The notes below the pieces were generated by a model that was not told the origin of the DNA, did no database searches, and worked only from the letters and a program-made list of their open reading frames with translations. Positions 7,971 through 62,100 of a stretch of 64,000 nucleotides of DNA are shown in pieces. This DNA comes from Amoebophrya sp. A120 (taxonomy: Eukaryota; Protista; Dinoflagellata), in the NCBI GenBank assembly GCA_905178155.1, contig CAJINV010000003.1:10501604-10565603 (forward strand), given 5' to 3'. The position numbers were made by a program, and so were the translations under genes. The stretch's first letter is position 1. Every line of letters starts with the position of its first letter.

Positions 7971-8014
7971 TGGATTGGACAAGATGAGTAGCAGCAGCGC
8001 GGGCCGTTGCGGCC

Positions 8015-8332: not shown

Positions 8333-11300
8333 ATGGCACCAAGACGAAGTAAAGAACATGGCTTCGTCGGACAAAAGGATTCCGAGTCAACAAGAAGCTC
8401 TTCAGCCGCTTGCGCCACTGCTATCACTGCGCCAGGCGACACAGTTCTGGTCTACAAGGACGCTGCACGAGTGCCGCTGAGCTTTCTTGCGCAGCGCTTG
8501 GGGACGAGACACGACGATGCCCAAGCCACAGCCTTTGCGCACCTGTCAGAAATTCTTGATGCGTTCTTCACTACAAGAGAGGGACACTGCCCCGCTTTCT
8601 TGCTGGTGTCGCTGCGATTACTGGAAGAAAAAACGCGGACGACCCTGAAAGGCGTGAGGCTCTCGACCACGTCGATCAGTTTTGAACACCCACACGCTGA
8701 CGTAAAACAGTTTCGATGCTGGGTATCCTGTGCAAGAGTATCTTCGCACTTGACGTACAAATTGCTTTTGCTGCAGTACTGCATCATGACAAAAATTAAA
8801 ATTTCCTTTCACTTTATAGTTTTAGTCGAGTCAGCATTACTTTTACTACATATGATCTTTGTCCTGGAAATTTGCGAGTTCTACCAGTCAGTGCGATACT
8901 TTTGCAATGCATACTGGGACCGTCTGAACAAGTTGGGAGATCATGGTAGCGTTAAATAATTACTCATCGAATAATTGTCTTTATCATGTCGCATAGGACT
9001 AGTCGATTCTGATTGTTCAAACCCGTCTTTATAGAGTTCTTGTTAGTAGGCTACGGCTACCTAGGTCTTGACTCAAATCAAGAGATATTAATATCCACTT
9101 CGCCTTCCTCCACTTCATATGTGGATGCGCATGTGGCTGCCAACTCCCATGCCAGCAGTGCAGTTGGGATTGAAAAGTGCTACCAAAAGCAGGAAATTGT
9201 GTCTGCGGCTGAAAAATTCAAAAGCTCACCCTTGCGGCGGCGCGAGGCCGCCGGTATTTCTGCCATTGGAAGCGAGACTGTTTCCCGAAATGTTGCGGAG
9301 TTGCGGCTTCCCCTGTTGAAGCAGGACACTTCGTCATCGCGGGGGGGTGGCTAAGGGTATTGAGGGCCTAAGTGAAAGAGAACAACAGAGATTTCCAGAC
9401 ATTCGCTGCCATAATCGGCTCTGTCGATTGGCTGGCGCCTTTAAGGTGGAATCTAATATAATATATGTAACTCTCTTGCGTTTCTCATTCTTTGCTACCT
9501 TTCATCTCTGGACCCCTGAAGCAAGTCAAAAAGGGCAGCCCCGGACTCCGGGCCGGGCCTTCCCGTCTACGGCCAGGGGGGTCACAGAGTTGGGCAATTG
9601 GGGGAGGGTTCAGAAAAATTTCCGCAGAGGCCCAAACCCGATTGGTACTGCGGAAATTTGTCTGCGGTTCCAGCAGGGGGGGGTCCTGACCGACCCCGCT
9701 CTGGTGGGCGGGGGTGCAGACAAATTTCCGCAGAACAGTCGACTTACCGTGGTCAGCCGGAATTCTCAGCACTAAGAGGTCAGAGCAGCTGGAACAGCCG
9801 AGGTTTGGAGGGCCGGGCCTCCCGGGGCAGGAAAGTAGATGAAATGCGAGAAGCGGACCATGGCCAGCTCCCGCGGACGAGTTGCTTTCCGCGGGTGGGT
9901 CCCCTGCTCAGCCCCACCGCAACCTCCGAGGCCGCCTGGATTTGGACAACCCAAATTGTTTTGCCGTTACGCCCAAAAACAAAATTCTTGAACTTTTCAG
10001 CCGCGGACAAAACTCACGCTGGTAAAGTCGTTCACCTAATGAAAATGATCAAGCTTTAATCTATCTTTCCCTCGTCCACCCTTTGTCAGTCTTTTCAACA
10101 AGAACTGTGGGACATTGAATTAGTGACTAAGTACTTTTGTTCTTCAGGCGGAATTCTGTCGCTTGAGAGCGAGTGCCTGGCGCTGGCCCGTGCATTGGAA
10201 TTTTGCGGTATCAGTCTCGTCGAGGTCAAGGCAGTATTGGATATCGTCGCCGATCTTCTCGGGGAAGAGCAGCTGACAGGTAAGTTATATAGGTGCATCA
10301 TGCTTCCTCTTATGGTTATGAAAGAATGACAGGAGTTCGAGGCCATGAATATCGCACAAAATTGAAATAAAAGTTACGATCACATCGAATCACCAGATCA
10401 ATCTAGTTGTAGCACTTAGTTAGAAGTTCGACTTCTATGAAGAAGAAAAAATAAAATTAGTTTGTGCGGCTCGCGACCAGCACGATGTACAGGTGCTGCA
10501 ACGTTTAGTGAATGGACGCAGCAACACCCAGTGCCACTGATCTTTGGCATAGGCAGACCAATGCAAAGGCACTAGTACTTGCCGAACAATCTGAAGTCAA
10601 TTGATTAGCTGCATGAGCATGATGGAAGATGAAGAACCCTCAGCGTTGACACAAATATTAATGACGATGGGACATTTCAAATATCGTGAAATCGGAGCTA
10701 ATGCTAATATGATGTGTAAATACTTAAGCGCAACATCAAGATCAAGTTCTTCAATTTTAATAATGAGCAAAAAGAAAAAGCCTTATACAGAAAAACAAGA
10801 AATAAAGAAGAATCTGAAGGCGACTAAAAAGATTTGACAAAAGGGTGCTATTTGCTAACGTATAATTTAAAACGGTACTAGAATGGATGACTGAAAGCAA
10901 CAAACTTAAACTGCAGGATCGTCGCTGGCGGATCGGTTGCAACTTCCCGCACGGACAGTAGCAGACTTCGTCAGTAGTAAAGACAGAAGGATGCTGTTTG
11001 CGAAACTGCTTTACGACGGGCTAGTGCGTTGCATCGTCAGCGCGTTGAACGACGAACTGAAGTGCAGTCTTGCGTCGAAGGAGCAGGAATATGCAACCGG
11101 GCATGGCCATGGCGGCCGAAACTCGGCTGTCTATTCGACTAAATGTGTCCACCTCGTACAACTCGCATCGGAGTTCGGTAACGAACGCAAAGTGTCATCC
11201 TCATCGTCGTCCGATTCAATCCAGGGAGCGTCTTCGTGGGAGAGTTTCCAAAGTCTGTGGATGCAGTCGGCGCTCTTGAGCCGTGCGAGGACGAGCAATG

Positions 11301-11434
11301 ATCATGATCATCAACATGAACATTATTTGCCCACTGCTGTCGTATCAACTAGGAAAGTGTTCTTCGGCTTTGGAAGAATTTGCCATGCACCTCTTTTTTT
11401 CCGTGTGTTGCGTCATGTGTGTCCATGCAGATGA
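8333..11434 (+). CDS. Multi-exon, highly divergent myosin-motor-like protein (3' boundary uncertain; may continue into the 11682 ORF)
   Basis: Predicted exons 8333-8722, 8918-8945, 9050-~9345, 10148-10279 and 10917-~11300. Motifs occur in myosin order: LSEILDAF, RLLEEKTR, YGYL, ARALEFCGISLVEVKAVLDIVADLL, RRMLFAKLLYDGLVRCIVSALNDELK (cf. RDALAKALYxRLFxWLVxxINxxL) and SWESF. No GESGAGKT P-loop is seen. Confidence 0.45.
8723..8914 (+). mobile_element. Introner, family B; non-canonical in-frame intron
   Basis: TGG[GTAT...ATAC]TGG. Subterminal IR TGCAAGAGTATC..CGCACT vs AGTGCGATACTTTTGCA. Shares the 19-mer AGTGCGATACTTTTGCAAT with the intron at 61400-61600. Confidence 0.8.
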
Positions 11435-11681
11435 CAAGGTGTGGAATATAGGACATGGCATTGCTGGTCATCATAAAAATTTTCATACGCTATTTATCAT
11501 GTCTATGAAGGCTCATGCATGATATTCGGTTTCGGAGCTGTCATGATCTCAACTTGACCTAAACCACGAGGAGTGGACAAGTTCGTTGCGGTGGTCGTGC
11601 ACAAGGACACATTTTTGTACGTGTGTGATTGACCTCCCACAGAGAAAATGACACCAGGTTGCGCCTGCACACGAAGTTAGT

Positions 11682-13907
11682 TTGAGTTTTTTTTCCAGCC
11701 CGAGACATATTTGCAGTGCATACGAAGACACTCTCTACAACGCTAGTGCTACGGAGAACGTGGAACTGCAGCTCGGATGTGATGCGTTGGCGAATTTTTT
11801 TGCTAGTTGCGACCCAGAGCGGAGTAGTGTTTTAGTGGATTGCTTGTACCGGCGAGACCGATCCGAAAAAAGCTTCTCTCCTTTCGTGCTCCTGCAAGGC
11901 GGATTAGGCACAGAAAGAAACCTCCCATCCGCATCCAATTTGTCAACGCGCGAAACATGCGTAATCTTCTGCGGTTGTCATGCAAAAAATGAATGTGGAT
12001 GGGTTTTCTATTTTTTCTGTGGATACAGACAACGGTTACAGCATAGAGGCCACGCCTTTGACGTGTCAGGTTCATGGACAGCCTCGTTCTTTCCGCACAC
12101 TCTGGCTGTGCAGACCTTTAGCGGGGAGATGTTGTCCACGGCTTCGGCCGCGGAATTATCGGAGGATTCGCTGCAACTACTGCACAGCATCGCGTTTTCG
12201 CACCTGCGCGTGGAGCGAAATCCTTTTGCGGACATGCTAACGCTTCGAGAGGACCTCGAAAACATCCTGCGAACTTCCATGCGTGTTTACGTTGTGGCCT
12301 CATCGAAGAACAGTCCAGCTACGCCTTCTCAACAGCGCGCTCATGTGTTGGCTGCGGGCAGCACAGCTACAACACGAGGTGGCAGTGGGAGTTGTACTGC
12401 TACTGGCGCCGCAGCGTCGAGCTCGAGGGCGAGCGGCGATGACAACAGGTTGAAGTTCGTTGTGTCGGGAAGAACAGAGAACTTGAAGCATTTGGCGGTT
12501 TCCACCCGGCCAACTGCAGGCTTCCGCGCCCCCGGCACCGGTGGCGGAGCTACGCGAGGAGCAGCAGCCCCAGAGTCATCCTCTTCGCAATCCGGCATCG
12601 CTTGTCGTTTCCGACAAGACGAAGCGGACGAGGGCTTGCGAGATACTAGTGATGAGCTGTCTGCGAGTCAGCATTTTCAGGTTCGGGATGATGATCTCTT
12701 TACGGGGTACGTGTCCTCAACCGGCGCCACGCAGAGCAGTTACGGAGGCAGGAGAATAATGTTGACAGGAACGTCCTCCTCCGCTTCTTCTTCTTTAACG
12801 ATCAGCAAGAAGAATCCGACGAAACAATTTCTGTTCTACGAAGAGGCGGGTGCGGGCGACTCTGTGGCGGGAGGAGGTGGCGCTACAACTGGCTCCTCGA
12901 GTGCTGCGAATAAAGGAAACAACGCTTCTCCTGGGGCTCCTACGACGGGGGGACCAAATAAAGTCACAACGCCACCGAAAAGCGCTGGGGCTACTTCTTC
13001 GGCAGCCGCCACCGCTGCCTCGGCAACGACCTCGACCACCGCGCCTGCTGGTGGTTTTTCGGGGTTTCACAACTTGACGCCGGAGGGTCAGGAAATCGTG
13101 GCTGCGCAAATCAAGAAAATCATGGGTGGCGCCGCGGAGGGGGTGGTGACGACGGGGTCGTCCGCTACTTCATCTTCTGGAACCAAGAAAAACGCCGATG
13201 CGCTGTCCGTCAAGATGGACCGCGTGCTAGTGGACGAGGCAGGGCAGAACAGTCGCGGGCCCAGCCCCTTTATGGAGCTGGTCGGCCTCGGGCCGGAATC
13301 GCGGGAGGAAAGCTATAGAGAGCTGTGCGTGAACAAGAAGGCCGACATATTGAGAGGAAAAACGTCCCCGTCCCAGAGTCAAGATCAAGCTGGGAAATCT
13401 GCTACACAATTCCCACAGCTTCGGCTGTTGCGCGTGACAAGTTTTGTTTCGTAGTGTGGTCCTGTTTCAGCAGCGTCATAGATCCAGCCTATTGTGCTGG
13501 TTGGAGCATTTGAAATTCCAAAACACAGCTAGAAAATAGATACTTCCTAATATGAGGCTCCGCGTGATAACAAGTAGCTATATATAAGCATTTTGATCAT
13601 GTAGATTTGCATGACAACTATTGGGCGGGGGCGTTTTTACATAGGACGCGACATCTTTGACGCGGTAGCCGCCGGCGATGCGCCGGCGGTGCAGCGCAAT
13701 CTGCAAATCTTCTGGCCCTTGTTTGATAAGTATCTCAGTGGCAGTGTACTACACCTCCCCTCGGTTTCCTCTGTCTTTTTGTTTTGCCTCTCAGTTGCTA
13801 AAAATTATACGATGAAATAGAATCCAAGAAATCTTCCGGTGCTTGTACTTGTAGATATTATATATGAATATAATAATGACGATGCTCCCTTGGCGCTTTG
13901 CATCCGC
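11682..13907 (+). CDS. Ser/Gly/Ala/Thr-rich protein followed by ankyrin-like repeats (probably continues to ~15002)
   Basis: 590-codon ORF. Removing introners 13347-13649 and 13730-13858 (each plus one duplicated triplet) gives ...KKADIFDAVAAGDAPAVQRNLQIFWPLFDKYEYNNDDAPLALCIR. A downstream segment NKNNSLAFALHLALQ is also ankyrin-like. Confidence 0.55.
13347..13649 (+). mobile_element. Introner, family A copy 1; non-canonical intron
   Basis: GAC[ATAT..AAAAACGTCCCC ... GGGGCGTTTTTACATAGGACGC]GAC. The internal sequence is homologous to 20409-20736 and 22024-23478. Confidence 0.85.
13730..13858 (+). mobile_element. Short introner-like intron
   Basis: TAA[GTATCT...AGATAT]TAT. Using the nearest AG (13853-13854) gives an immediate TGA, whereas the TSD-guided junction keeps the frame open. 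Confidence 0.55.
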
Positions 13908-15240
13908 CCCAGTCGTGTTTGCGTTGTAACAGGTTGCCTTATAGGAGCATGACTTGAGTTCAGTGCGAAACTGTAATCGATGCAAGGATGGATTGTTTTG
14001 CATTCGGATTTGCTAAAAGTTGTCGCCGTAATGATTACTGAGGATGCGGAAACCGCCCTCATTAACAGAAGGAAATGGAGGGGGGGGGGGGGTTGTGCAC
14101 GCCTATAACAGTGCCTATGTGGAGTTTGTGCAGAACTGGCTGAAAGCCAAGGGACACGTGGCGGACCTCGATATAGCGTTCTCAAGCGTCACATTCTCAG
14201 CTATTGCGTGAATTTGTGATGCGTATGCATATGCAACAAGAACAACAGCCTTGCCTTTGCGCTTCATCTTGCGTTGCAGATGTGGTGCGGATTTGCATAC
14301 TCATGCTATTTATAATTAATGCGCCGAGAGCTTGTCATGCGAAAAAGCTTGATGTTGATCATGATGCGCAGTGAGTACTGCGCATCACGATCATCGTGAT
14401 GTCATCGAAAGTTGTGCTTCCTCGCCCACCCCCCGGGGAGGGGATCCTTGACCTGTGGCGCTGGGAGCGGGTGTCCACTACATGATGACGATGATGATGA
14501 TGATGATGCAGTGAGTGTGATAGTTTGGATAAATTGAAACTCGTCATGTAACAGCTGAAAACGTAAGTAACGCTTGAGACTCCCATACTGCAGGCGTCGC
14601 CTTTGCAGAATCTCGCGAAGCTGTCCCTGGACCGAATCCACCAGATCGTGTCTGATTGCACCTTCGGGAACGCACTTCAGGACGCACAAACAATATGTAC
14701 CTGTCAGGTGGGAAGTTGTCATGAAGATGAAATTACTTACTTTTGAGTACCAGTACGCTACTAGGGCTAGTAACCACGACCACGACGTGCTCGTGGTTGC
14801 GGTCGGCTTACTTAGTACCGTAGCAAATCGCTTCCGTGTTTTTTGGGCGATTCCCCACGTGGCGCAACCATATGCCAAGGTGGCAGAGCTGAAACAGAAA
14901 GCCAAGGAGGTGCGGTACCGCGGGCCGACCAACCGTCCGGGTGAGGCTGCTCAAAGCGGCGGGAAATACGATGACGCTGGGCTGGCTGCCAGAGGTTCAT
15001 GATATAATTTGTTGATGATGTTGGATGCCTCCGTTTGGTGGTCTTGTTGGGATAAGAATAATAATGCGCTCAAAACGTAATCTCAATCTCTATGTTTATA
15101 TAGCGCAAGCGTTTGCAAAGAACTACTTTTAGTACATCCTCGTCCAACTCCAAGGACGCCAACACTGCGACTTCGAATACTTATGCGTAGATACATGAGA
15201 CTGATCAAAGAAAGAAAAATGAATCGCAACAGCACGCGGC

Positions 15241-16425
15241 ATGAGCGACAGCATGGTGGGTGTAGACGTTCCTGTGATTTACATTCCGAAGGATTTCGAC
15301 TTTCTGCCGATCAGGGAGCGGCAACTCATCCTCCATCAACAAGGAGTTTTGGACAATGAAGTCCTCAAAAACCCCCGGCTCCAAACGCTGGCATCGAGTA
15401 TCAGGCAGCGTTACATCGTCTATTTTTATCCGCGTTCAGAAGTTGCGCTTGCCTCATCTCGTTATTCTACAGCATTTCATATTTCTCTGCTGTATGCGGT
15501 TTAAGATCAAGAATAAGATTACTTTTGCTGATGATATTCATCTCCGTAGCTGCATCGAATCAACAAAAATAAAAAACACAAAACTAAGCTACAAGATACA
15601 AAAATCGAATAAAGCTGATTGCGATTTTTACAATGTCTATCAAACAGCGGAGGTGAGTGCGTACTATGATTTCCGGTCTGCCGAGGGGGATGAGCACGGT
15701 GATTTCCCGTGGACCGACGTGTATTCGGCCGATCCTTCGCAGCCCTTCAACGTCGGAGCGGAAAAAGTGAACGCGGGGAGCAAAGGCTACTTAGCGAGTT
15801 TCCAGGGAGATGGCCCGACGGGTAGTTCCGCGGACGGGGCCGGCGGTAACGCAGCGACCATGGCTGAACAAGGTGGCAGCACACCCTACACAGCCAAGAA
15901 TGGTGTCGCGCTGCATCAAGCGCTATCCGCAATGTCTCTCGAACTGCGGATGTGCCAGGAAACCTTGGCCGCCCACACCAGTGCCAACGATATGGCCGGG
16001 AAAAAGTCCGAAACAGCGTCCTACCAAACGCACATTCTCCAGGAACTCACTGCGGAGAGAGACTACTGGAAAAAGGAATGCGTCATCCTGTGGGAGCAGG
16101 TGCGGCGCTTGGAGGACGATTTGCGCGCGTGGGACCAGGAAGGCGCGTACTTACTTCAACTTGCTCATGCACTTTTATCTAACAAGCATGAATCATGCGC
16201 TTTTCCTTTTTATTGCCTCCATAGTGGAAGGACACATATTAAAATTTATTCTGCAGGAATTGGCAGCACCGAAAGCAGCAGAAGCCGAACGAATTGGACC
16301 TGAACGCTGCAATACGGGGGCAACAAGGCCAGCTCGGCGAGCAGGTAGACCTCCGTTTGGACCAGTCCAAGAAGCTCATGGAGGAGCTCCGAAAACACAT
16401 TGAGGAAGCGGAACAGTCAGCCTAA
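15241..16425 (+). CDS. Hypothetical coiled-coil protein, 3 exons
   Basis: Exons 15241-15409, 15648-16146 and 16257-16425 are joined by GT-AG introns in consistent phase. Coiled-coil-like segment LQELTAERDYWKKECVILWEQVRRLEDDL; ends ...KHIEEAEQSA*. Confidence 0.65.
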
Positions 16426-19400
16426 GAAGGGCTCCTGATCTGCTGGTTAGGAGTTCTTCTTCGACGTCGGAAAACATTAACATATCCCCAAAGTCATACG
16501 TGCCGAGCCCGTTCTCGTGTCGATACAGATCTATCACGAGCAAATACAGTAAGAAAAACAGAGCAATGCTGGACGATGCTTCAATGTCTAGCTTTTGCGT
16601 TATATTCTATTTTGTTATATTATATTCTATTTATTTCTAAGGAATTAATATTAAATTAAACTGAATGCTGAAGATCATATATGTACCTAAATAGTTTAGC
16701 ATCATCATCGGCATAATTATGAATAAAACTCTGAGAAGATCCGAGTTAGTGACGCGGCCTCGCGACTAGCTCGGGTGTGTAGGCTGGGCGGAGTACCAAC
16801 AAGTAAGCCAGCAACTGTTGTTGTATATGTATTGTTACCTAGTAAGTTTACATATGTTTTGATAGACAGTCGCAGAATGGAAGCAACACCGCCGAAGATA
16901 TTCACTCTGGTCTGTTACAGCATTTTTCCTTAGTACCGCTGCGATGCAACAACAACTCAACGAAACCACTGCATAGCAACTTTCTATATTGGTACTGCTA
17001 CTGAGACTGAATTATTTGCAACAATCCCACCCCTGGAGGGAAGGGAAGTCGTGATAAGGGCCTGGCGCCCAGATGTGCTACTAGAGGTAGACGCGGCAAG
17101 TCTCGCAAACTACACGGCAAAACGCCGCTGCTCCTGGTGAGTGATGAAGGGCGGCGCCCGCAATCCAGCGCGTGACCCCTCGCTCCTGGTGCTGGGTGTT
17201 CTCTCCTTGAGGAAGAGCCCAGCTCTGGAAGCTGGTGCGCCTTGTAGTATCATGCTCCTGGCGAGCACTAGGCGCGGCGCCTCGTGGTCTTTGGTGAGTG
17301 AGACGGCGGAGGGCTGTCCGCGTGCTTAACCTGAACAACACAGCGCCAAACCCTGCCCGGCCATTCCGAGGCGGGCCCCCCCTCTAGCGTGTTGCCGCGT
17401 CGTGTGCAAAGATGCCCGGCATGGCGTGCCCCCCCCGGCCTTGTGCCGACCGTATTAGTGGCGCGCACCGCCGTAAGCCCTAACGCCCTACGTAGCGCAC
17501 AGGACGCAGCTGGCGGCACTTGCCGAAGATCGGTGGAATCGGTGGGGCCTGCGCTATTCTGGAAAGCTTGGGCGGGCACCCTCAGCCCCCTGGTGGGGCC
17601 GCGAGACCGTTCGCGGGAGGCGGCGCAAGAGGCGGCGGGGGCTCCGCCTGCGTGAGCCGCCACCGTCACAGCTTGCGCCCTACATTCTGCCCGCCCGGCA
17701 ATAGCCGGATGTCAGTGGAGCCGCTCTGAAAGCGCGCGCCGCTACGCACGTAGCGTCATGATTCCGCGTCGGCGCGCCCTGTCCCTGTGTGCACCTTTGA
17801 ATAGTGCTGCTAACTATAAAAAGGAGCCAGTGCTCGAAGCAGGTCCGCACAAAGCGCCCGCTTCCCTTCATGCGCGCTGCTCTCCTTCTGCTTCCACGGC
17901 TTGAGGTCGTGCGTCGCGTTGAAGGGTCTTCCCCCGTCTGGCTCCCACAACCGCGTTGTCGGGCGGATCATTGCGAGTTGAGTATAGCATGGTCAAAGAG
18001 CGAGCGCCGCTCCCGCTTCTGTTGGAAACAAGAAGCGGATCAAATCCAATTGCAATTATTTATATTTGCAACAAAAAAGAAAAAGAAATAGGAAGAGAAG
18101 AAAACGACTATAACTGTATGAAACCATCAGACGAGACCGGAGCAGGGTCTCGATTTCCAGCGCGCGACTATAATTAAGCTCTGCGAAGAACAACGAGTCG
18201 ATACATTCCCATTCGTGCCCTCATCTCTTTGTACCTGCAAGAACAAAACATCGCCTTCTACTATTTGTATTTGTTAATAATTCTTGTTTTCTTTTGTTTC
18301 CAGATGCAGATGTGCCGTCGTGTTCAGTTCGTTCGCTGTTGTGTTTTGTCGTTGAACGGGAGGGCGAGAAGTGGCGCTGCTTGTTGTAGCGGCCGTGGGA
18401 TTTCAATCCGCGGTATCGTAGCCAGAACAAGACAACCGCAGGGAGGTGTTCAGTTACACTTTGGGGCTACTAATTCTATGGGTTCTTTTTTATGTGAGCG
18501 TCAGCATGACCATGAGCTCGATAGCACTAGTAGGAGTCACACAGATAACAGGAAAGATCGTGCTGACTACATCACTTCGGTTCTTGTGTGCAACGTAAGT
18601 AATCATGCGAATGCCCGACTTTCATCATGTATTAGTATTTGTATGCCAACACCAGCACCATGGCTTCTGTTCAATGTTCCACAAACTACAGGACCTCTAC
18701 TCTTGTTTTATTCGCATACTTCCCTATCCCTTCGCAGTAAGGTTGGTCTCAAATAATCTTTTTTTTTCCGTGGTAGATGAACATGTTGTCCTTGGAGTTG
18801 GAAGTCCAACGAAGCTGCCCTCGCCGGATTGAATATAGTAGATGAAGGCAAGGCAATGCAATGGAAATAAGTAGTTTGAAAGCTGTTGTCTAAATAGAAG
18901 TATTAAAGCCGACACGCAGAAACGTAGGCAGGCTCTACAACATGATACATACCTAGGCTTTCGCTTGCTGCGGCTCTCTTCTGTGGTTGGTGTTGTTTTT
19001 GAAACCTGCTTACACGAGCGACGTACATCGAAAGCTGCAACAAGTTCCAAAGAGCTTTGAAATAAGAAATACGCAAAGAAGTAGATATGTTGTTGGGCCT
19101 ACTTCTCTCACAATTATAAAGATCGATGTGACCGCTACGTATCAACACGCACATCCCTAGTTGATCTATATATTGCTTCTGCTACCCCTACCGCCTACTT
19201 CTGCTGATCTTTTAAAAAAGAAAGGAGACCCGAGCCGCCTCCTTGTCGTTTTTGTTCCGAAGCAAAGTATTTGAAGCCCGCGTCTCGATGCGCCCTAGGT
19301 TTCTACTCTTGCGCGCTTTTATTTATATGCAGCATGATCCGGTACTCAGACTCACGCATTACGAATTAATATACTGATAGTGCACGCACGGCTGGCAGCT

Positions 19401-19682
19401 GCGCGCTTTATCTTCAAAATTTCAATTTTACAGTTCCGATGGGGGTCTTACCCGGAAAATGCTTCCTGCGTCGCAGGCTATCTGCGAGCTTAGGCCTCGG
19501 CCCTCCGGCAGCTAACCGGACCAGCACACAAATTTGGCACAGCATAGTACTCAAGCAGAAAAAGCAACTATGACTTATCATTATGGAAAAGCAACATGAG
19601 AATTACTCAAGATTTAAATGTCTTCCCTTAGAATTACAAGTGCTTCTTTGTCTCGTCAAGTATTTTGATTTACATTGTTATA

Positions 19683-44469: not shown

Positions 44470-44721
44470 TATTTTTGATTCCTCTGATTTGATCGATGCA
44501 CCAGTCAGGACGAGGACGAAAACGAAATAAAGTACATCTACATGATGTTGATCCATGAGATAAATTTAGATGAAGTGAAAAACAAGTAGAAGAAAAATTG
44601 TAGGCGTCGAAGATGTTTGTTCCGCTACTAGTGTTACTGCTTTATTAGTAACTAATCGTTTGCTTGTATTTGGTTTCTCTTTTATGTCCGCAGCAAGCGA
44701 GAAAAGACGGAGATCAACAAC

Positions 44722-49630: not shown

Positions 49631-49795
49631 TTTTTGCTTTTTGCTTTTTGCTTTTTGCTTTTTGCTTTTTGCTTTTTGCTTTTTGCTTTTTGCTTTTTGC
49701 TTTTTGCTTTTTGCTTTTTGCTTTTTGCTTTTTGCTTTTTGCTTTTTGCTTTTTGCTTTTTGCTTTTTGCTTTTTGCTTTTTGCTTTTTGCTTTT
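49631..49795. repeat. (GCTTTTT)n heptamer tandem repeat, ~23 copies
   Basis: Directly visible, preceded by GCTTTT hexamer variants. Confidence 0.97.
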
Positions 49796-50689: not shown

Positions 50690-52035
50690 AAAAACATACG
50701 TCCGGCCACATTGCTGGCCTTGCCTCACGCGTACCATCAGAAGTGCGGCGCTGGCGGTTTGTTGGTGCTGCACCATCAGAAGCGCGGAACTTACGGACGG
50801 GCGCCACCCGTCTACAAATTCTACAACTCTTCGCGGAGATCAATAAGGCACGCCGTCCATTATGTCGTTGTGCTCGGTCTGCTAACCCAAGTGCGTAGAT
50901 TCGTCCCGTGCTTGGTCTCTCAACATTTTTCGGCGTCCTCCCGAAGGCAGTCCGCCTAATAACTTAGAGCCTGCAGATAGGGTTCCCGCTTGTGAGGGCC
51001 GGGTCGGCTCGCGGCTCAGCCGAGTGAGCGACTCCTATTCCAGGCTCTAACCCTTTCGGATTGCTTGGGCTCCTGGTGCTGCAGTCACCACTTGGGAGCA
51101 TAAAAAGCAAAAACATAAGCCCGGCCGCACTGGTGGCCTTGCCTCACGCGCACCATCAGAAGTGCGGGATAGGCAGTTTGCTGGTGCTGCACCATCAGAA
51201 GTGCGGAACTTGCGAGCGGGCGAGCCCTTTCCAAAACTATCCAAAAAAAAAACCATAGCTAGGGTTCCCGCTTGTGGGGGCCGGGCCGGCTCGCGGCTCT
51301 TTGTGTAAGAGATGTTTCGCTGAGCTCTAACCCCTTCGGATTGCTCAGGCTCCTGGTGCTGCAGTCACCACTTGGGAGCATAACAACTAAAAACATAAGT
51401 CCGGCCACACTGGTGGCTTTGCCTCAAGTGCACCATCAGAAGTGTAGCATTGGTAGTTTGCTGGTGCTGCACCATCAGAAGTGCGGAGCTTGCGAATGGG
51501 CGACCCCTTTCCCGAAACTTGCAACCACCGCTTGGGAGTATAAGAATGAAAACATAAGTCCAGCCGCACTGGCGGCTCTGCCTCACGTGCACCATCAGAA
51601 GTGCAGTATTGGTGGTCGTTGGTGCTGCACCATCAGAAGTGTAGAACGGGCGAACGGGCGAACCCTTTCCCGAAACTTTCCCGAAAAAACAAATTTCGTG
51701 CTTGGTCTCTAAACAAATTTCGGTGTCCCCCCGGTGGTAGTCCGCCTAATAACTTAATAACCATATTTAGGGTTCCCGCTTGTGGGAGCCGGGTCGGCTC
51801 GCGGCTCATTGTGTGAGAGAAGTTTTGCTGAGCTCTAACCCCTTCGGATTGCTCAGGCTCCTGGTGCTGCTATCACCATTTGGGAGTATAAGAAAGAAAA
51901 ACATAAGTCCAGCCGCACTGGCGGCCCTGCCTCACGTGCACCATCAGAAGTGTAGTATTGGTGGTTGTTGGTGCTGCACCATCAGAAGTGCGGAACTGAT
52001 GATCGGGCGACCCCTTAGAAGAAGAAGAAGAAAAA
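50690..52035 (+). mobile_element. Head-to-tail cluster of five SINE-like copies with variable 5' truncation
   Basis: Copies at ~50690-50810, ~50830-51252, 51253-51520, 51520-51690 and 51691-52035. All end after 2x GCACCATCAGAAGTG...GGGCG.(.)CCC, most with an A-rich tail. Confidence 0.8.
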
Positions 52036-53243
52036 CAGGCCGCGGCCAATCAGCGAGGAGCAGGCATTGGTTTTGCTGAGCAAATTGAGAAACAAAGTAG
52101 GTGGTAGTGGTAGTACTCCCGTATTTCAACTGTCACTTCTGTTGAGGTAGAGTCCGTCGCGCTGCACAACAAATATTTTGACGCACTTTGTAATTGCCGC
52201 ATCTTCGTCATTCACTTTATTCCCATTTTCATTTACGGTAGCATTTGAGCCTGGAATACGCCAAAACTAAAGATGCGCCTGGTGGTACTCCAATAGCACC
52301 GGCGGTGCTATTGGTTTTATCCGCGACCGCCATCCCCCCCCTGCCACGCCGACAGAAAAACTACATTTCGGACCCAACTGCGCCTAATCACACTACCATC
52401 AGACTCCCCGAGACTATATACCTTCTTCGCGATGTTGATTGATCGTGTGTCCGCCGATCTGGCCTGCGCTCTCGGGTTTTGCATGTTGAGTTTGTGCGAT
52501 CTGTTTGCTTTTTTTTTGCAAAATTCCGATAGGAACTTTGCTTTCTGCTTCGCACATTCACGCTGTGATGCGCCCCCACGGGCACTGATGTCTGATCGTA
52601 GTATTTCTTGGAGGCTCCGCTGCGGTTGGGATCCCACATGGAAAATGTAGTTTTGATCTGTCACGCATCGGTGCAGCCGGGTAGTTTCTGCAGACCTCGC
52701 ACAGCGCCATTTTACCGCCGCCCGCATGTACACTGCACCACCATCGCGGCCAGGAATCCGCCCGGCTCTGCCCCCGATTCCCGATGGCGTCCTGCCCTTT
52801 ACCTACTAGCTCCACCTATCTGCTGTTCTGCGTCATACCGTCGGCGCTCCCGCCCGAAGCCACACGACACGAACTACCACCCACGATCCGTAGCTGGTCA
52901 GCGGGATTTTGTGCCTCCGCTCGTGGCCGACAAGTTGCGCGACTTTCACGGAACCTGCTGCAGCTTGCACTACGGTACTGCCACCAAGGACTTGTTGCTG
53001 TCCTTCCACAACCCGACACCTGCTCGCCGGCCGTCCTTTGATAAACTTCTTCCCGCACTACCTACTGCTACTCCGATGTGACGAAAGGTATTTTCAAACT
53101 GGTACTCCGGCTGCAGGTAGTACTTGGTCCCCGCCCCACCTGCCGCACTACATCTGCATTCCGATGGGCGCCATGAAGATTTGATGTTGATGAGGAAGGC
53201 TCTTGGCACTTAGCAATAGAAAAAAACTTTATCCACCTAGATA

Positions 53244-53683
53244 CAATAGGCCCGCTTTTTTGTCTGCGGGGATCAGTTCAGCACGCTTTCCATTATGTTG
53301 TAATGCCCGGTCTGCTAATCCGGGTGCGTAGATTCATTTCGTGCGTGATCCCTAAACAATTCAGTGGTGACCTCCCGGTGGTAGTCCGCCTAATAGCTTA
53401 ATGCGATAAGTTAGGGCCCCCGCTTGTGGGGGTCGAGTCGGCTCGCGGCTCCGTGCAGGATGTTCGTAATCCAAGCTCTAACCCCTTCGGATTGCTTGGG
53501 CTCCTGGTGCTGCAATCACCTCGTGGGAGCATAACAATTATTAACATAAGTCCGGCCACACTGGTGGCTTCACCTCACGCGCACCATTAGAAGTGCGGGA
53601 TTGGTAGTTTGCGGGTGCTGCACCATCAGAAGTGCGGAATTTGCGAACGGGCGAGCCCTTTCCCGAAACTTTCCCGAAAAAAA
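53244..53683 (+). mobile_element. Long copy of the SINE-like family
   Basis: Aligns with the 1870-2290 copy from CAA.AGGCCCG onward and ends TTTCCCGAAACTTTCCCGAAAAAAAA. Confidence 0.8.
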
Positions 53684-55231
53684 ATTCGCTATTGACTCTC
53701 TCAGTGAGTGTGTGCGTCGCTGTGAGATTGGACGGGTCAGGCCACGACTCTGTCACCAAGCAATAGCGCCATCTCTTAGCGGCTCAAGACGGCTCCTATT
53801 GTGACTCAAACTTGTTTCTTCTGTGCATAGGAAGAGCCTAATCTTCCTTTTATGCCTTCCGCGTCTACTGCGGAGCAAAGCCCTTCGCCTTTTCATTGTT
53901 TGTCCCCGATCTATCAGACTGACGACAACAGAGGTTTCGCACCATGCTGGCAGTCACTTCTTTTGTAAGTAAGAAGCTCCACTCGATCCCGGGGACAGAA
54001 ATAAATTACCGAGGCATGTAGTTCTAGTTTTTTCTCTTACCAGCCAAGAAATAGACTTGCAGCAACTCGACGAAGTCTACCGCTATTGATAGGCGGATGG
54101 AGTTGAAGTTGAAGACGTAGCACAGAAGCTCTTGCATCTGTGCAGTGTCCCCTTCATTTAGTTGTAGTGGTGTGCCTTGAGTACCGCTGCAGCGTTTGGC
54201 AGAGCAAAGCAAGCATCTTGATTTTGCGTCTCTGTGATGGTTGTGGTCCTGCTGCCTCCATGGTGGGAAACAAATGCATTCACATGGAGATATTTGGAAC
54301 CATTCGCAGTGGCATTTTGGATTCGTCTGGAGGACTTCATGTCGGCGGAGCTAGTTGTTTGGTATTCAAATATTGATCATCATCATTCACTGACATTCAT
54401 CTAGTACCAGCTGTACGACCTTACCTTCTACCTCCCGAAATTAACAAAGTTTTTAAAGCGTCGTCACCAGCAGTATCTCTTTATCAAGGGATGCATGATC
54501 ATGACGGACACGGACGCGAGGAGGAGTTAAATTGATCGTATTGTGTAATATAAATATAAGCCCGAGACAGGTACTCCTACCTATTGCTAGGACTCACTGC
54601 AATCGTATTCTCATCGTGGTTTCCACACTGCGTCATGTACTTTAGTGATGTGCGACGACGTGTTGCAGTTGCCGTCGACACCGCGCTCGGATTATTATTG
54701 TTCCACCAGTTTCAGTCTCAGTGTGCCGCGGATTTAGATGCTTCTTGATCTTGATAACGGAGGACCGCCACCGGCCACAGTGCTAGAAAGGTCTTTTGGA
54801 AAACCACACAATAGGCACCTGCAGCCGCAGGCGTGACAAGTGGAGTCACTCGACCTGCCAGCTGTGACGTGAACGTCCGCCCATCAATCTTTCCTGGGGA
54901 AGTAGAAATCTGTTGTCGTAGTCACAGGTGAATTCGCTTCTACGTGCAATTAAAGCGACGGCCAAAACTTTTTCGGCTCTTGCTGACGAACGAAGTAGTG
55001 ACCATCTTTTTTATTTGTGTCTTCCTTTGGTCTACGAGAAACATGACAGCAATGGGCTCCGATCAAGAACAAACACACTGCACCGATCGGATTTTGATCC
55101 TATGCACTATTCCGTAAATTTTGCGGTATGTACATGTAATAGAAGAGACCTGTCCTGCAGTAGTCGTTCTGTGCCAGCGTAATTGGCTGAGCTGCAGCTG
55201 CACGACCGCAGTGAGCTAGAAGCGCAGGGCC

Positions 55232-56929
55232 GTGTGCCTGCCAGACGAACTGAATGCCGAAGCCACGATCACAGATTTTAGCTTTATAAGTTTGCATACT
55301 CGTCCATCAAACTTTGCTCGGAACGAGATCGCGCTTCATCGAAGGTCTAGCACTACCGCCGCTCCCGCACGGGAACTAGAGCTGCTTCCTGTGGTTCCGC
55401 CCAGGCGTGCTGGTACTACTTCCCCCACAACCTGTTTGCAGCCGCCCGCCGGCCTTCACATTGCCTTGGTACAACAAGAACCGCAGGTGGTACGGGCGCG
55501 GGGACCTGATGTTCTCGGTGAGATAGCGGGCGTACCAGCTGCAGCTGACGCAGTGGCGGGCTCTCCTCCTGGCGGATCTACGACAAACGGACGTGGCGCA
55601 ATAGCCGGTGCTCCTGGTTCGACAAATGCAAATGGGCCGGTCTGGCGTCGCACTGGTGTTGCTGTCAGCGCGGCGGCAGTTACGCGCGAACTCAGTATCG
55701 GAAGCAGCCCTGGCCGCTTTCCCACCCCAGTTGACCAGGACCATCCAGATCGGTGCATAAGTGGAATAAATGTTGCACCACCCTCGTGGTCCAGTCGCCA
55801 ACCTCCTGCCGACCACAGTCTCGCTTTGGTGCCGCACCGCGATCAACATGGAGATGCTAGTCATCTACTATTCCCGCCCGGCGTTCTTGCTCCCGCACCA
55901 AGTTGGAGAATGAAAACGAATTCAACTTCTACTTCAAAAGACGCACGCGCAACGCCAGTGACTGACGGCACAGGAGGGGCCACTTCGTCAGCTTCTGAGC
56001 ATCTTGGTCATGATGGAAGTGCGCCTGTCTTGGCAAAGGGGATCATGACAAAGCAAGCTGTTGTTCTTGCGCGAAACAATAATGACTTCGCTCGTCCTTC
56101 TGGTGAAGTTGTAGATCTTCCTGGCCCCGCTGCGTTTCTTATCCGCTCGCGTTCAGGTAGCCGCACCAGTTGCAAGGAAGACGACGCGGAACTGTTCAAG
56201 TCACGATTTTCTCCAGCGGCCAAAAGGAATTCGCAACTGGAAACGCTAAACCTCTCGGCGCAGGATTTGCGTGACCTGGAACTGAGTCTGCGTGTAAGTG
56301 CGAGTACCGCAGCCGAGTCCGCTGCTGTAGCCTTCGGAGAGGGTGGCCGGTGCAGCAAGCCGATATCAACAGCACCGATGAGCAGCCAGACTAACCGGCC
56401 CTGCATCGATTTCAGTCCGAAGCTGGACACCATTGCGACGCCGATATCCCTCGCAAGTCATGGGCGGACCACTACCTCGACAGTGCAAAGGCGGGGCTTC
56501 GGGGGGGTGCTCGCTGCTGCATGCGATGCGCAGCCCCGTGCGGGTCTTCTTGCGCGCAGAGACGCGAATGGTACCGATAGAAGTAGCGCCATTAGAAATG
56601 GAATAAATGCAGCTGATCAAGAACGGGTGTTCAATATGCCTGCTCGACCTCGAGGGAGCGGCGTCATTGCTGCGTCGTCGCCATTCGCGAACAGCAGAAG
56701 CACTCCAGAGGCGAGCTCAAGATCAAGGCCACTACTTTGCCAGAATTCCGTGAGTGTAAAGGGGCTCAAAGCAGATGAAGGTGGAAGCACCGGTGTATTT
56801 TTTGAGGATGCGACAGCAGTAACAGATGTAGGTAAAGATGAGCAAGAGCAAAATCATCAATCAGGACGCACACCAGTGGACACGGGCGGAATGAAAATGG
56901 ATGATCTGGTATCCAGCGAAAGAAAATGA
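55232..56929 (+). CDS. Hypothetical disordered Pro/Ser/Ala-rich protein (terminal exon; upstream exons likely)
   Basis: 565-codon ORF. No domain recognised. Confidence 0.6.
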   Translation: MCLPDELNAEATITDFSFISLHTRPSNFARNEIALHRRSSTTAAPARELELLPVVPPRRAGTTSPTTCLQPPAGLHIALVQQEPQVVRARGPDVLGEIAGVPAAADAVAGSPPGGSTTNGRGAIAGAPGSTNANGPVWRRTGVAVSAAAVTRELSIGSSPGRFPTPVDQDHPDRCISGINVAPPSWSSRQPPADHSLALVPHRDQHGDASHLLFPPGVLAPAPSWRMKTNSTSTSKDARATPVTDGTGGATSSASEHLGHDGSAPVLAKGIMTKQAVVLARNNNDFARPSGEVVDLPGPAAFLIRSRSGSRTSCKEDDAELFKSRFSPAAKRNSQLETLNLSAQDLRDLELSLRVSASTAAESAAVAFGEGGRCSKPISTAPMSSQTNRPCIDFSPKLDTIATPISLASHGRTTTSTVQRRGFGGVLAAACDAQPRAGLLARRDANGTDRSSAIRNGINAADQERVFNMPARPRGSGVIAASSPFANSRSTPEASSRSRPLLCQNSVSVKGLKADEGGSTGVFFEDATAVTDVGKDEQEQNHQSGRTPVDTGGMKMDDLVSSERK

Positions 56930-59176
56930 AGAAGTAGTCCCGTGTGCGAGACTATGCAGTGGAGTATGACAATGATAATGCATGCGAGCGCAAGAAGATC
57001 AATGCAAAAAATAAGAATAACAACAATACCGATGCATGAGAAGAACAAGAAGTCTACTTCCACTTCGCTTAGAGAAACAAACGACAGGGCTCTTTGCATA
57101 AACGCAGTATTTCAACAGATGGCGCGTATGCCCTCATACATATTATGTATGTGTCCTGCCTTGTCCGATATTATGTCATAATATCGGACAAGGCAGGACA
57201 ATGAAAGAGTTCGTTTGCTGTGACAGCGCGGAAGTGCGCGCAAATCTATGTCTATCACCCTTGTAGCACTATTTCTTTGTTGTATGCTCTTGCTCGTCTC
57301 CAGACGAGGAACGCATTCGCACATTCTTTCGTGCGATACGTAGACGCCCTAGTGCAACGCATTCGGACGAACAAGATTACCAAGAGTAACGGCAAGGCCC
57401 AGCAAAAAGAAGGGAACACGCAGACAGGTGTCGATAGCACGCGGTTTGTCCCGAAGTTTCGTCCAGTTGCAGGGCAGGATCAGATGAAAGCGTGTGCGTG
57501 AATGTCTCGGGGGGCACAGGTTCGGGACGTTCGTAGCGAAATAAGAACTCATTTTTCAGGGACCTCAATTCTGCGATCGGAAACGTTTGCGGGCTGACAG
57601 CCTCTGAGAACTCGTGGAGAACCGCCCGACTGCACGCGGTGTTGCCCTAATAGTTTTGGTTTTGCTTCCATTTCGTTTTTCGGTCGGTGGATGCTTCAAA
57701 ATGTCAACAGTTTAATGATGCCTGTGCCTGCTCGTGGTGAAAGATCGTTCTTCTGCTGCAGCGTTGCGCTTGCAGCCGGAACGAAGTTGTTGATCGAGCA
57801 TCTTCGTGCATGGGGACGGCAGTGTTTAACGGTTGCGCGAATACGAGGACAACTGTACTACAACTTACATCGATCATCACTTGTGTACCAGAGCAAAAAA
57901 CCCATTGTTACTGCAGGTTTGACTAGTGCCACATATTTCAAGTCTCCTTTTGGCTGCTCAGTTTGGCAGACAAAGACACTTTTGGTACGCATGGAATTGC
58001 TAACTAGCAGTGCGAAAAACTGAATATCGCATGCCTCCAGCGGATCCTCTTACCTCAACGACAACGGTCGATAGACAGTCGCGGGCTAGGTACCTTGAAC
58101 TTTGTGGCGCGAGATGCGGGCTTTCTCCCTCTGCAGTGGCGATAGCTTTTTACGCGGCAACCGTAAGCCTGTGAAAAGTATTTCGCTCACGAGCTGCAGC
58201 ATGAAAATGCCGCCGGTACAGAAGGATTAGCAATGCAGAGCTCTATCATGGCTTGGCAGCGGTCTGCTGTGAGGCAGCTTTCAGTATGTCTATGTGCAGG
58301 TCTATGTCAGATGCGATGCAGTTCAATTGTTGATCTCGTTGACGTTTAGGTGCACACGCACAGTTAATTAAAAGCACATGCGCATCGTGGAGCGCTAGTG
58401 CGGCTGCATAAGATGCGCCCTCTACTTTTTTTCAAGTTTTTGTTGTAATGTTCATCACCCACCTGAAGCTGAAGCTGCGGCTGCCTTCCTACTTCGTTAC
58501 TCGTAAACGCAATCACTTTGCATGTGGCGATGCTTGCTGAAGACCGGAAAAACCAAGTAGCGCGCTCTTTAAGCGATGTCACGTACCATCCATTGTTCCG
58601 ACTGCGACTGTAGTCGATGAGCGTAGACGAGGAAGACAATGAGGATGAGGGAAATCAGTTGCGCATCAAGAACCAACATGATGTCGTAACACTAGCTAAG
58701 AAGGTGAAGGGCAAAAGCGTAGTACTTGAGTTTGCACGTATCCTCCACTCGATGCAGTTCCCCGACCCACTTTTTTATTCTTGATTTTTCAAATTCGAGG
58801 TGAAGATGAAGCAGCAGGAGGGGGATACTTGTTGAATGATTCGCACTTGTTTCCACATCTTCCCATTCCCAAAATTAGGAAATAGTCACCTGCTCTTTGC
58901 ACCATTTTTTTAAATTGTCCATAGTCGTACTCGTAGCCACAGGCACAGTTGTCGCTCAGATAGAAGTTGTTTGAGGTTTCTAGGTCTTGCTCCCCCCGTT
59001 TTTCCTCCAGCGTGTGGCAGCTTCAGAAAACACTGGAAGTCGTTTTCGGCCCATGAACATGATCTGGAGCGACCAGCTGCTTCTTTGTCATTGTTTTAGT
59101 TACAGTTATTTTAGGTTATTTTCCACCAAGTAGTAGCAATAGCGTCATCATACAAGAAGAAGAATTGATCAAAGCC

Positions 59177-62100
59177 ATGGTTGCGCTCGGGAAGTATTTT
59201 CCAATCAAGATTCCCAAGGTAGTGTCGATCCAAAATGGGAAGCTATCTTGCTTTCAACTCGTTGTGCAGGTGGTGGTGGTGTCGTTGTTATTGTACCAGT
59301 TTATCGGGGAGCGGATGTATTTGGTAGTGAAAATTCCGCAGGGCTTTCCGAATGCTTGGGTGCAAGTTGCAGATGCCACCCTCCCGGCCGTGCAGCGGGA
59401 CTATCAGGGTCAAATCTGCCAGGGGTCTGCGGAGTTTCTGTACAAGTACTCGACTGCGTTCACGCACGGCTCCTACCAGTGCTTGGAGACTGCCGCTACG
59501 GAAGCGGGGTACAAGATCGGCAAGCGGGAAATCTACTTCCCTACGTATTATCGCGAAACCCGAGGTCGCCAGAGCTCCGGGACCGGTTGCGATAGCCTGT
59601 GCCCAGGCGCGTTGGCCTGCAACGATACGTCGTACACCCAGCCACCGCGGTACGATTTCGGCTACGAGTATCCAGGAAAAAAGACCCATCCCCATCCAAT
59701 TTGTCGTGCAAAACATGCACAGAGTCAAAGAAGTCCAGGGTTTATCATGATGTGGGAAATGGATGGGGATGGGTGTTTGTTCCACCTGGATAGCGAGTGC
59801 ATCGCCGAGAAGCGCGCGACTATTCCCGTCTGGAATTCCACGACGGACATTTTCAGCACGCAATCCGTGCGCACTTGTACGTGCTCGACGCGCGCTATCA
59901 TGGAAGCGTCTTCCTATATTGAGATCGACAAAGTCGTGAAAGTAATCAGCTTGCAATTAGCTGCAGCTTGCAATCAGAATCATGCATAAAGTTTTAATAT
60001 TAGTTTTAGTAAAATCGATACAGGTACAGCGCAAAAGCGGAGAACTGAGCAAAGTTCTCAACTTAACTGCCGAGCCCTATCGGCGCCACCAAGAGCGCGA
60101 ATGGGTTGCGAGACGTGGAGACTGACCCAAAACGACGAGAAGGCCCTGGACACTTGGCGGAGCAAAAAGCTTCGCCACTGTCTACCTAGGGGCGACCAAG
60201 TTCGACCACATCGCAACAGCCACCAGCCGCGCACGACTGAGCGCGCGACCGCTGTCGCAGGCAGCAGATATATAAATATGGGAGCGCCGGCTTTCTTCGA
60301 TATTTCGGCTACGCACCTCGCCCGATTCCCACCGATCCGACGCGAGTGGCCCACGTCATGTTGTCCGCCACAGTGCAAAAGCGAAAACACGGACAGGGAG
60401 CGGCAGAAACTTGGCGAACAGAAATCCGCACCGACATGACAAAAATGCGCGCAGCGGTTTCAGATTCATTGGCTCGGTCGAAATCTTTGGCGACAGATCA
60501 CAAAAGGGCTGCAAGCGGGCTCTGCTAGTAGTCACGGCATGCACTTCGCCTTCTTCCGCTGCGTCTTTCGAAGAGCAGACTACTCCGATTCAGCAAATAA
60601 GAAGACTGCAGGGACGAAAAGGATAAGGAACAGGAGTAGGGCGCGAGACAATTATCTAAGACTTAGAGTCGAACAGATTACAATCATCAGTAAGTCGATG
60701 CATTTACTACATACCAGCTGTTGACGCGCTTGCGTATGCGTTGGGTGGCGCGCTCGCGAAAAATCTTTGGAAGCTTGGTTTTCCAATATTCGTATTCCAT
60801 GCTGGTTTGAAAAAACAAGGTCAAGGCTGTTGTTGTGATTCTCCTCTGCAGCTCTATCTCTGCCCCTAAACAGTCTTGTAATCGGCCTCGCTTGTTGCTT
60901 GCCTGCTGTGCATTTTTGCAGGTATTTTGTGGCTTTCATATGTGATTTTATCTTTATGCTCCATGAGTAGAAAAATCTCATTCGCAACTTTGTCGATTTG
61001 GAGCCTGGCACTTTCATACGCGCACACTATCTGGTCGCTGGGGTTTCTTCCCGGGCGATGGGTTTCGAGCACATTTTCAAAGTTTCGGACCAGGAAACCG
61101 AGGTATCCGGCGCGTCAGGGGGATCCAAAGCGGTCGCGGACGCAGACGAGAATAAGCTGCCCGTGCTCACGATTATCATGACCAAGAAGGACGATGGTAA
61201 GTACGAAGAGTTTGACTGCTTCGAGGAGAAAAAACGCCGGGACGCTAGCGTGTCGGGTGACATGAGCGGCAGATGCCGCTTCTTTGAGAACGACGCAGTC
61301 TGGATGACCTTGGAAGACTGGGTGACGGCGGCGTCCGGCGGGAAAATCAATCTTGCCGACCCGGATGCACGGAACAGCCACATTGCTGCAAACCTGGCAC
61401 TATCCCCCGCAAAAGTTTCGTATTCGTACTAAAAATCGACGCAATCATACAAGTACATACAAACCTTCTACTTCCCACCAAGCTAAATGAGTGAGCGTGC
61501 CAAGTTGGTTCTCTTTGTCATGCTAAGCTATAATTAATTTGTGTTGCAACATTTGCAGTAACTTTTTCTAGTTCTAGTGCGATACTTTTGCAATTGATAG
61601 GTACCCGGGTACAGTTCGGGGGACCGGCGCATGGCCGCCTTCCGCCTCACCGGGGTGGAAGTGTTGGTCAGCCTCGAGTACGTTGGCCCGGAGTTTCACG
61701 GAAACATTCCGGAGTCCGTGGACCTTGACGGGTTCGAAGACTACATGGTTGCCCTCGTGAAACTGTCTGTGAACGATGCCATGTGGACGGGGCTGCCGCA
61801 GACCGCCTACGGCTCGCCTGCTCCCTCCGCGGTGGCCGCGACCGATTTCCACACGGGCTCGTTTCGCGAGCGCTACCACTACGGGATCCGGTTCTTGTTC
61901 ATGACCAGCACCAGCTCCGCGTATGGGGCCTTTTCGATGATGGATTTACTCACTGGCCTAGCTGTATTCAAGGTGTACTTCGGGGCTGCGGGTGCCGTGG
62001 TGGCTTTGTTTGCCCTGTACGCCCTCGGCCAGCTGTCGGTGCAGTACAAGCGAGCCGTCGAGCAGCCTTTGGACGTGAAGAAAGAAGCCGCCACCATCGT

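Follow-up and report, generated by a model that had tools for sequence, protein, structure and literature searches.

A common cut position for inverted-repeat introners in a 64,000-nt stretch of the Amoebophrya sp. A120 genome

Inverted-repeat introners are a described feature of the Amoebophrya sp. A120 genome: Farhat et al. (2021; PMC7789003) reported more than 60% non-canonical introns, TAT-N7-AAA repeats, direct repeats of 3–5 nt and hairpins, and proposed an alternative mechanism. Here, we analyse a 64,000-nt stretch of this genome (GCA_905178155.1, contig CAJINV010000003.1, positions 10,501,604–10,565,603, forward strand), hereafter the window, whose coordinates are used throughout. Its introners belong to the published system, to which we add a cut rule: in RNA, introns of unrelated families start 1 nt before a terminal TAT and end 4 nt after the ATA at the other end, the removed segment being the element plus exactly 5 nt.

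Comparisons with published systems refer to the passages of each paper that were covered. The window and the described A120 introners share the organism, a TAT followed by seven looser bases and A's, direct repeats at the junctions and non-canonical ends. In contrast to PMC7789003, in which repeat length and the position of splice sites with respect to the hairpin are described as variable (the legend of its Fig. S19 shows a 5-bp repeat), we find one 5-bp duplication and one cut position across families; some of this may be seen in the logos of that paper. Gozashti et al. (2025; PMC12130899) tabulate A120 family 38 as terminal inverted repeat (TIR) DNA/Ginger, with '5-bp TSD, TA/TA Termini' (TSD, target-site duplication) and integrase-related homology, and several other A120 rows (58 in the family table) also carry a TSD of 5. 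Their TSD calls, however, range from 2 to 11, most families are 'Unknown', and no shared end rule or fixed cut was found stated in the passages covered. In published tables, the ends of at least one A120 family are of another, Mutator-like kind. Neither a fixed 1/4 cut nor a shared 5-bp rule was found stated in the open Amoebophrya literature (figures, bioRxiv supplements and subscription journals lie outside this scope), and the corrected end rule is apparently an unstated refinement of the published system.

Further afield, introns of Fritillaria borealis, euglenids and hemistasiid diplonemids that derive from miniature inverted-repeat transposable elements also have paired ends, direct repeats and loss of GT-AG (PMC11282704, PMC12621601). 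Their ends differ from those in the window, being AG-AC or AG-AT in Fritillaria, CAG/CTG at +4 to +6 and −8 to −6 in euglenids and G/C-rich in diplonemids; splicing by an adapted U2 spliceosome is presumed for those of Fritillaria. SOS splicing (PMC12779559, a paper in which Amoebophrya is nowhere mentioned) likewise cuts DNA transposons from mRNA, mostly not at GU-AG, and is triggered by pairing of terminal repeats, a role that end pairing, present and retained in the window, may also play here. It requires AKAP17A, CAAP1 and RTCB and is imprecise, with multiple sites and indels. In the window, the dominant joints are exact and keep to a single register (rare variants being invisible in contigs).

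Removal from RNA and the cut position

A preliminary description of the window had listed 11 introns in three loci, starting at 8723, 13347, 13730, 19935, 20409, 20957, 21575, 22024, 59668, 59895 and 61400, as beginning xTAT, which holds at all 11 coordinates, and as being excised from RNA. Joint evidence comes from assembled contigs of two RNA-type runs, X4 and X1; the DNA comparison, run X6, is confined to the third locus and thus to three of the 11 segments. Every one of the 11 segments is skipped in contigs of X4, X1 or both, and none of the three in the third locus is skipped in X6. We analysed 22 joints among those listed (14 of 15 X4/X1 rows for the first loci, one from the piece table, six of seven third-locus rows and one loose contig end), having dropped a joint at 22163–22575, which lies between repeat copies, and an X6 joint at 54426–59668, which falls in a repeat; eight more joints for the first loci lie beyond that listing. 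Contigs drop rare variants, leaving minor joints invisible, the raw RNA runs X9–X11 have 0–2 reads on 8250–24500, and metatranscriptome run X5 contributes four short pieces without a joint; precision therefore refers to the dominant joint.

When exons are joined at the RNA joints, stop-free frames of 907 amino acids (aa) so far in gene 1 (267 nt between 14880 and 15647 have no unique placement), 466 aa in gene 2 and 656 aa in gene 3 are obtained. Spliced gene 3 is identical to residues 1–656 of an annotated 698-aa A120 protein, P0001, to which an exon of the third locus is 100% identical (50% for a paralogue in A120 and an orthologue in A25); across its three junctions it aligns with both of these homologues. 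Two other cuts interrupt these frames: ending the 13347 intron at ATAG (13644) instead of 13652 creates a stop at residue 829 of gene 1, and leaving both 5-nt copies of the flanking repeat in gene 3 creates one at residue 243. Each of the two RNA-type runs also has a contig of 59866–61048 that crosses the 59895 intron unspliced, which may represent a retained intron, pre-mRNA or DNA carry-over.

The joints could in principle stem from empty alleles, excised elements or template switching at hairpins, because the RNA nature of X1 and X4 is presumed and reverse transcriptase can jump over a hairpin that lies between direct repeats. We consider such a DNA-level or artefactual origin improbable, given that the contigs of X4 and X1 that skip introners also skip ordinary GT-AG introns, that DNA run X6 lacks such joints, that joints without any repeat, and hence with a single possible cut, keep the register, and that all joints restore long frames, those of gene 3 being matched across the junctions by its paralogue and orthologue.

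At 15 of the 22 joints no equivalent cut gives a GT/GC-AG reading, U2-type terminal dinucleotides being absent there. The proposed independence from GT-AG therefore stands for eight of the 11 listed introns (8723, 13347, 19932/5, 20409, 21575, 59668, 59895 and 61400) but not for 13730, 20957 and 22024, which can be read as GT-AG. The 20957 segment is moreover no member of the system: it is an ordinary GT-AG intron (20957–21141, RNA joint) with a chance GTAT start. Ten of the 11 had been described as ending ATAx; RNA-defined ends reduce this to nine, since 13347 ends ACG (13648) and 20957 ends ACC. Similarly, the intron placed at 19935 starts at 19932 (A-TAC).

We scanned 120 offset pairs for TAT near the 5′ end and ATA near the 3′ end, allowing at most one mismatch, against a null of 300 trials of random positions. 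Of the 15 non-canonical joints, 13 have TAT directly after the first intron base and ATA directly before the last four (at most 3 under the null); the next best offsets, neighbours inside the repeat, fit nine and eight joints, and the mirror offset fits four. The remaining two non-canonical joints, 13347 and 54894, have two mismatches to the (1,4) offset. Among joints with diverged flanking 5-mers, a single cut, after position 4, is common to all. Four introner-type joints allow one cut only; T stands at +2 in all four of them and ATA at −7 to −5 in three. The 18 introns of this register have T at +2 in 18, A at +3 in 17 and A at −7 in 18, counts somewhat inflated by picking registers for best fit; the first base and the last four are free. 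Four GT-starting introns bypass an AG 1 or 3 nt away, and all five plain GT-AG joints begin GTA.

The listed members, all on the + strand and with RNA joints, are as follows (slashes mark element ends). Perfect duplications flank 8723–8917 (G/TAT...ATA/CTGG, 195 nt; element 8724–8913; CTGGG on both sides), 13347–13652 (A/TAT...ACG/CGAC, 306 nt; CGACA; 3′ triplet degenerate), 20409–20739 (C/TAT...ATA/GACG; GACGC) and 59895–61022 (C/TAT...ATA/CGCG; CGCGC), and partial ones flank 61400–61603 (C/TAT...ATA/GGTA; 4/5) and 21575–21889 (C/TAT...ATA/GGGA; 3/5). The intron at 59668–59796 (G/TAT...ATA/GCGA; element 59669–59792) is part of a multi-copy family whose copies measure about 109 bp and carry 30-bp terminal inverted repeats. 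A single cut is possible at 19932–20303 (A/TAC...ATA/AATT, 372 nt) and at 13730–14111 (G/TAT...ATA/ACAG), where GT-AG falls in the same register; at 22024–23481 (T/TAT...ATA/CAGG), which contains a nested insertion of about 1.15 kb, the GT-AG reading lies one base leftward.

Further introns of introner type, not in the earlier list and also on the + strand, comprise seven supported by RNA and one inferred. Two of the former are 11342–11726 (GT..AA ends, 385 nt, two equivalent cuts, duplication decayed to 2/5), with an unused AG 1 nt later, and 11904–12029 (T/TAG...ATA/CAGA), of the same family as 59669. The intron at 17012–18032 (T/TAT...AAA/CAAG), probably in the 3′ untranslated region of gene 1, has a single possible cut and the weakest end pairing. 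The long intron at 50070–53833 (G/TAC...ATA/GGAA) is defined by a 29-nt loose X1 contig end mapped to 50041–50069 and leaves AGs at −3, +1 and +3 unused; 56909–57342 (G/TAT...ATA/CGTA) bypasses an AG ending 1 nt later. At 53911–54294 (C/TAT...AGA/TATT) the cut is just 2 nt away from an exact ATA, and 54894–55292 (C/TGG...ATA/AGTT), with a single possible cut, has a degenerate 5′ triplet. The joint of 14171–14591 (A/TAT...ATA/CTGC; inverted repeat 15/20; open frame) is inferred from a 59-nt exon side. Three candidates with perfect 5-bp repeats are predicted from the DNA letters only: 28643–29025 (TAT...ATA; CGCAG), 33143–34278 (TAT...ATA with long nested inverted repeats; GAGTA) and, on the + strand, 45489–45886 (TTGCA), where taking out the element with 5 further nt keeps the frame open, whereas 0 or 3 further nt do not.

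The rule replaces 'variable splice sites' with exact substrates, shows where a branch point or cut ends may lie, can guide minigenes and the re-annotation of roughly 30,000 junctions, and defines the ends and TSD required of an autonomous transposase. It also explains why insertions cost the protein nothing, because splicing takes out the element plus exactly 5 nt.

Target-site duplication and end pairing

The 59669 family recurs in many X6 contigs and in related records. A 20-nt core scan gave 18 loci, of which L004, L013 and L017 were excluded as having no TAT near the core, leaving 15 true copies of 109–119 bp, all from one record series; element ends were chosen blind to the flanks before scoring. 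A 5-bp duplication of varied sequence is perfect in 12 of the 15 copies (other lengths, 0–1 of 15), and a 3-bp repeat directly outside TAT/ATA, the TSD length of Micromonas introners, is perfect in one. Repeat positions 1 and 5 match across the element in 13 of 15 copies each. Among the 18 window introns the same positions match in 11 and 12 (P = 0.001 and 0.0002), as against 3 and 2 for the flanking positions; at least three of five positions match in ten introns and the duplication has decayed in eight. The element is accordingly TAT...ATA, with both flanking N's part of the duplication. An element that begins at TAT agrees with where X6 contigs part from the window sequence: 46 do so immediately before 59669 and 23 before 59668.

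These data displace the earlier model of an NTAT...ATAN element with a 3-bp duplication, tolerated because a retained copy is frame-neutral. Its 3-nt repeat, the inner part of the 5-bp one, does lie within one mismatch in nine of the 11 listed introns, with two mismatches at 13730 (TAA/CAG) and 19932 (AGC/ATT), and its removed length (element, both N's and 3 nt) is arithmetically equal to ours. The N's, however, differ from copy to copy and agree between the two sides of the element, as positions 1 and 5 of the repeat, and the window repeats CTGGG, CGACA, GACGC and CGCGC reach one base further on each side. The frame argument fails because the duplication is 5 bp; two retained copies interrupt gene 3, as noted above, and RNA loses a complete copy, which makes neutrality unnecessary. 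We regard the 3-bp version as very improbable. An open-frame comparison in the 15 related copies does not discriminate (10/15 for removal of the element plus 5 nt, 8/15 for other lengths).

Inside the ends, A occupies +12 to +15 in 11–14 of 18 introns and T occupies −15 to −18 in 11–15, giving TAT, seven looser bases and an A tract, a pattern that 20957 lacks. The interiors had been assigned to different families; unrelated families are indeed present, but a first family joins 13348, 20410 and 22025, a second joins 11905 and 59669, and a 19-nt arm is common to 8724 and 61401. The end motif of the preliminary description, taken alone, stands weakly above background in the window (1,932 pairs versus 1,211–1,577 in five shuffles); TAT/ATA pairs whose inverted repeat reaches 14/20 or more are enriched (21 versus a null mean of 6.05 and maximum of 13 in 20 shuffles). 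A flank-blind inverted-repeat scan of the window is noisy (5-bp identity 0.28–0.48) and serves as supporting evidence only.

Inverted repeats had been ascribed to all 11 introns. The 20957 intron has none (3/20; 87% of swapped ends pair equally well), but pairing is specific in the introners: when each intron end was compared with swapped ends, 17 of the 18 register-type introns paired, over 35-nt ends, with their own other end better than with at least 93% of swapped ends, as against none of six ordinary introns. Two example introns have folding z-scores of −5.6 and −2.7. In the eight old copies the duplication is near random (13/40), yet TAT/ATA is retained at 42 of 48 positions and specific pairing of 35-nt ends in seven of eight, from which we infer selection at the RNA level on ends and stem rather than on the duplication. 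In line with the proposal that end pairing rather than GT/AG guides excision, pairing appears to matter. Family copies L008 (same register, reverse) and L011 (one base off) have decayed duplications and can be read as GT-AG; together with 13730 and 22024 they may reflect a drift of introners towards canonical ends.

Possible routes of mobilization and excision

A 5-bp duplication points away from superfamilies with a 3-bp TSD and towards integrase-like transposases. Ginger2/TDD-4/5 and GingerRoot (PMC2836005, PMC6839031) also have terminal inverted repeats, with a 5-bp TSD in TDD-4/5 and TA...TA ends in GingerRoot; the termini of Ginger1/2 are TG...CA, unlike TAT...ATA, and TSD lengths are 4 in Ginger1/2, 5 in TDD-4/5 and 6 in GingerRoot, so that TA...TA with 5 bp matches neither named group. 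From these features and the tabulated A120 family 38, our best guess is that the mobilizer would be an integrase-like, Ginger-type enzyme, and one transposase for all families is plausible. A DDE transposase of this kind, acting in trans, would recognize TAT-N7-AAAA ends and make a 5-nt staggered cut; the ends, the duplication and the copies are observed.

For the RNA step we favour, at about an even chance, the reading that these non-coding TAT...ATA inverted-repeat transposons with 5-bp duplications are removed, 1 nt before TAT and 4 nt after ATA, by a modified U2-type spliceosome guided by end pairing. The two intron ends would pair, the 5′ site would be read as N-U-A, equal to +2/+3 of ordinary GUA donors, and the 3′ site would be set by distance from the stem base rather than by AG. 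The cut after position 4 of each copy restores the target exactly, whatever its sequence, and, as the symmetric ends suggest, presumably in either orientation. A spliceosome is favoured by the constant U and A at +2 and +3, the GTA start of all five ordinary donors, the GT-AG versions in the same register and the published predominant splice sites, all of which begin NT in A120 and TT in A25; nearly all spliceosomal proteins are reported present, as is the U1-70K protein in A25. One strain with U1 and GT-AG introns is reported, so the non-canonical trait holds for only part of the genus.

Several points weigh against this reading. A long stem across both ends should hinder pairing with small nuclear RNA (snRNA), and the second spliceosomal step normally requires a terminal G..G pair. 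Neither a lariat nor a branch point nor a splicing factor was observed, and no branch-point motif was seen. With 20-nt ends, five of the eight old copies pair no better than swapped ends (three do). The rule derives from a single window with four genes, all on the + strand, no minus-strand test case having been found, and 53911 and 54894 fit it only imperfectly. On the DNA side, Pfam found no transposase among 174 window open reading frames (ORFs), 36 long and 138 shorter from 153 listed inside elements (the other 15 are wholly or largely covered by the first set); the ORF expected for the mobilizer in the preliminary description is thus absent from this set. PMC7789003 found no transposase in A120 either, and U1 snRNA is reported not found in A120. 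Finally, the three large published families for which full counts exist have NT at the 5′ boundary in 68–71% and also AN at the 3′ boundary in 65–69%; the cut rule predicts the former and not the latter, A being at −2 in 5 of 18 introns here. A mirror register for half of the annotated boundaries would bring both figures to about 64%.

Both terminal dinucleotides are free, U1 snRNA is reported as missing and lariats were not seen, which leaves room for two other routes. In the first, with the same elements and cut rule, a structure-measuring endonuclease might cut at 1 nt and 4 nt beyond the paired ends, after which the exons would be joined by an RtcB-type ligase, a precise cousin of SOS splicing, which is itself set off by terminal-repeat pairing and uses RTCB. 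This would accommodate the free first and last intron bases, the ignored AGs, the pairing retained in old copies and the missing U1 snRNA; it accounts less well for the invariant U and A at ordinary donor positions and for GT-AG versions in the same register, and SOS splicing leaves indels where the dominant joints here are frame-exact. We think it unlikely, at perhaps half the weight of the spliceosomal reading. The wider claim that a precise spliceosome-independent activity measures 1 nt and 4 nt from the TAT/ATA stem, matched to the 5-nt stagger of the transposase such that exon insertions are born as scarless introns, is equally tentative; if true, tens of thousands of introns would be served by a second general system of mRNA splicing. 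A bulge-helix-bulge geometry, as cut by the tRNA endonuclease, was rejected, the flanks being direct repeats and not complementary.

Less probable again is a hybrid or mixed route, in which the spliceosome would cut the 5′ end at N/UA, a separate stem-binding factor or second activity would set the 3′ end, and some copies (13730, 22024) would now be plain GT-AG introns. The donor-like 5′ end beside a 3′ end with no acceptor signal speaks for this route; 15% of canonical A120 introns are published as carrying the same repeats, and SOS–spliceosome hybrid events are described in animals. A single register, however, covers GT-AG and non-GT-AG cases without a second route.

Host genes and other repeats

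The 698-aa host protein of the third locus (59177–62605) has no Pfam match, and a length-restricted search gave only the A120 paralogue and the A25 orthologue. Its two hydrophobic stretches and YGIRF motif are, we presume, reminiscent of P2X receptors. From 62606 onward, X1/X4 RNA contigs depart from the window sequence into 28 other letters, at a site that begins G-TAT; the annotation reads on into this probable intron after 62605, and the last 42 residues of P0001 are therefore likely incorrect. In gene 2, a RING-like Cys/His pattern (21890–22023), recognized by eye from the translation, is split by the 21575 intron. A small gene at 37878–38850 presumably resembles, by eye, ribosomal protein S17; its introns look ordinary, consistent with the reported avoidance of ribosomal genes by introners.

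No copy of the 59669-family core was found in viral contigs. The insertion of about 1.15 kb nested in the 22025 element (approximately 22132–23294) has either CACC...GGTG ends with a 2-bp repeat or ACC...GGT ends with a 4-bp GGTC repeat, and reads, from these ends, as a second transposon type. Rfam gave no match, including for a tandem family of 280–500 bp with a doubled 21-nt motif (50686–53683) that fills the 3.76-kb intron and has an inverted copy at 1879–2043 and a fragment at 24504. Long inverted-repeat elements at 43831–44472 and 3526–4303 (130-nt and 47-nt arms) fall outside the TAT...ATA and 5-bp rule, and simple or short tandem repeat arrays occupy 49563–49860, 7434–7973 and 8023–8214.

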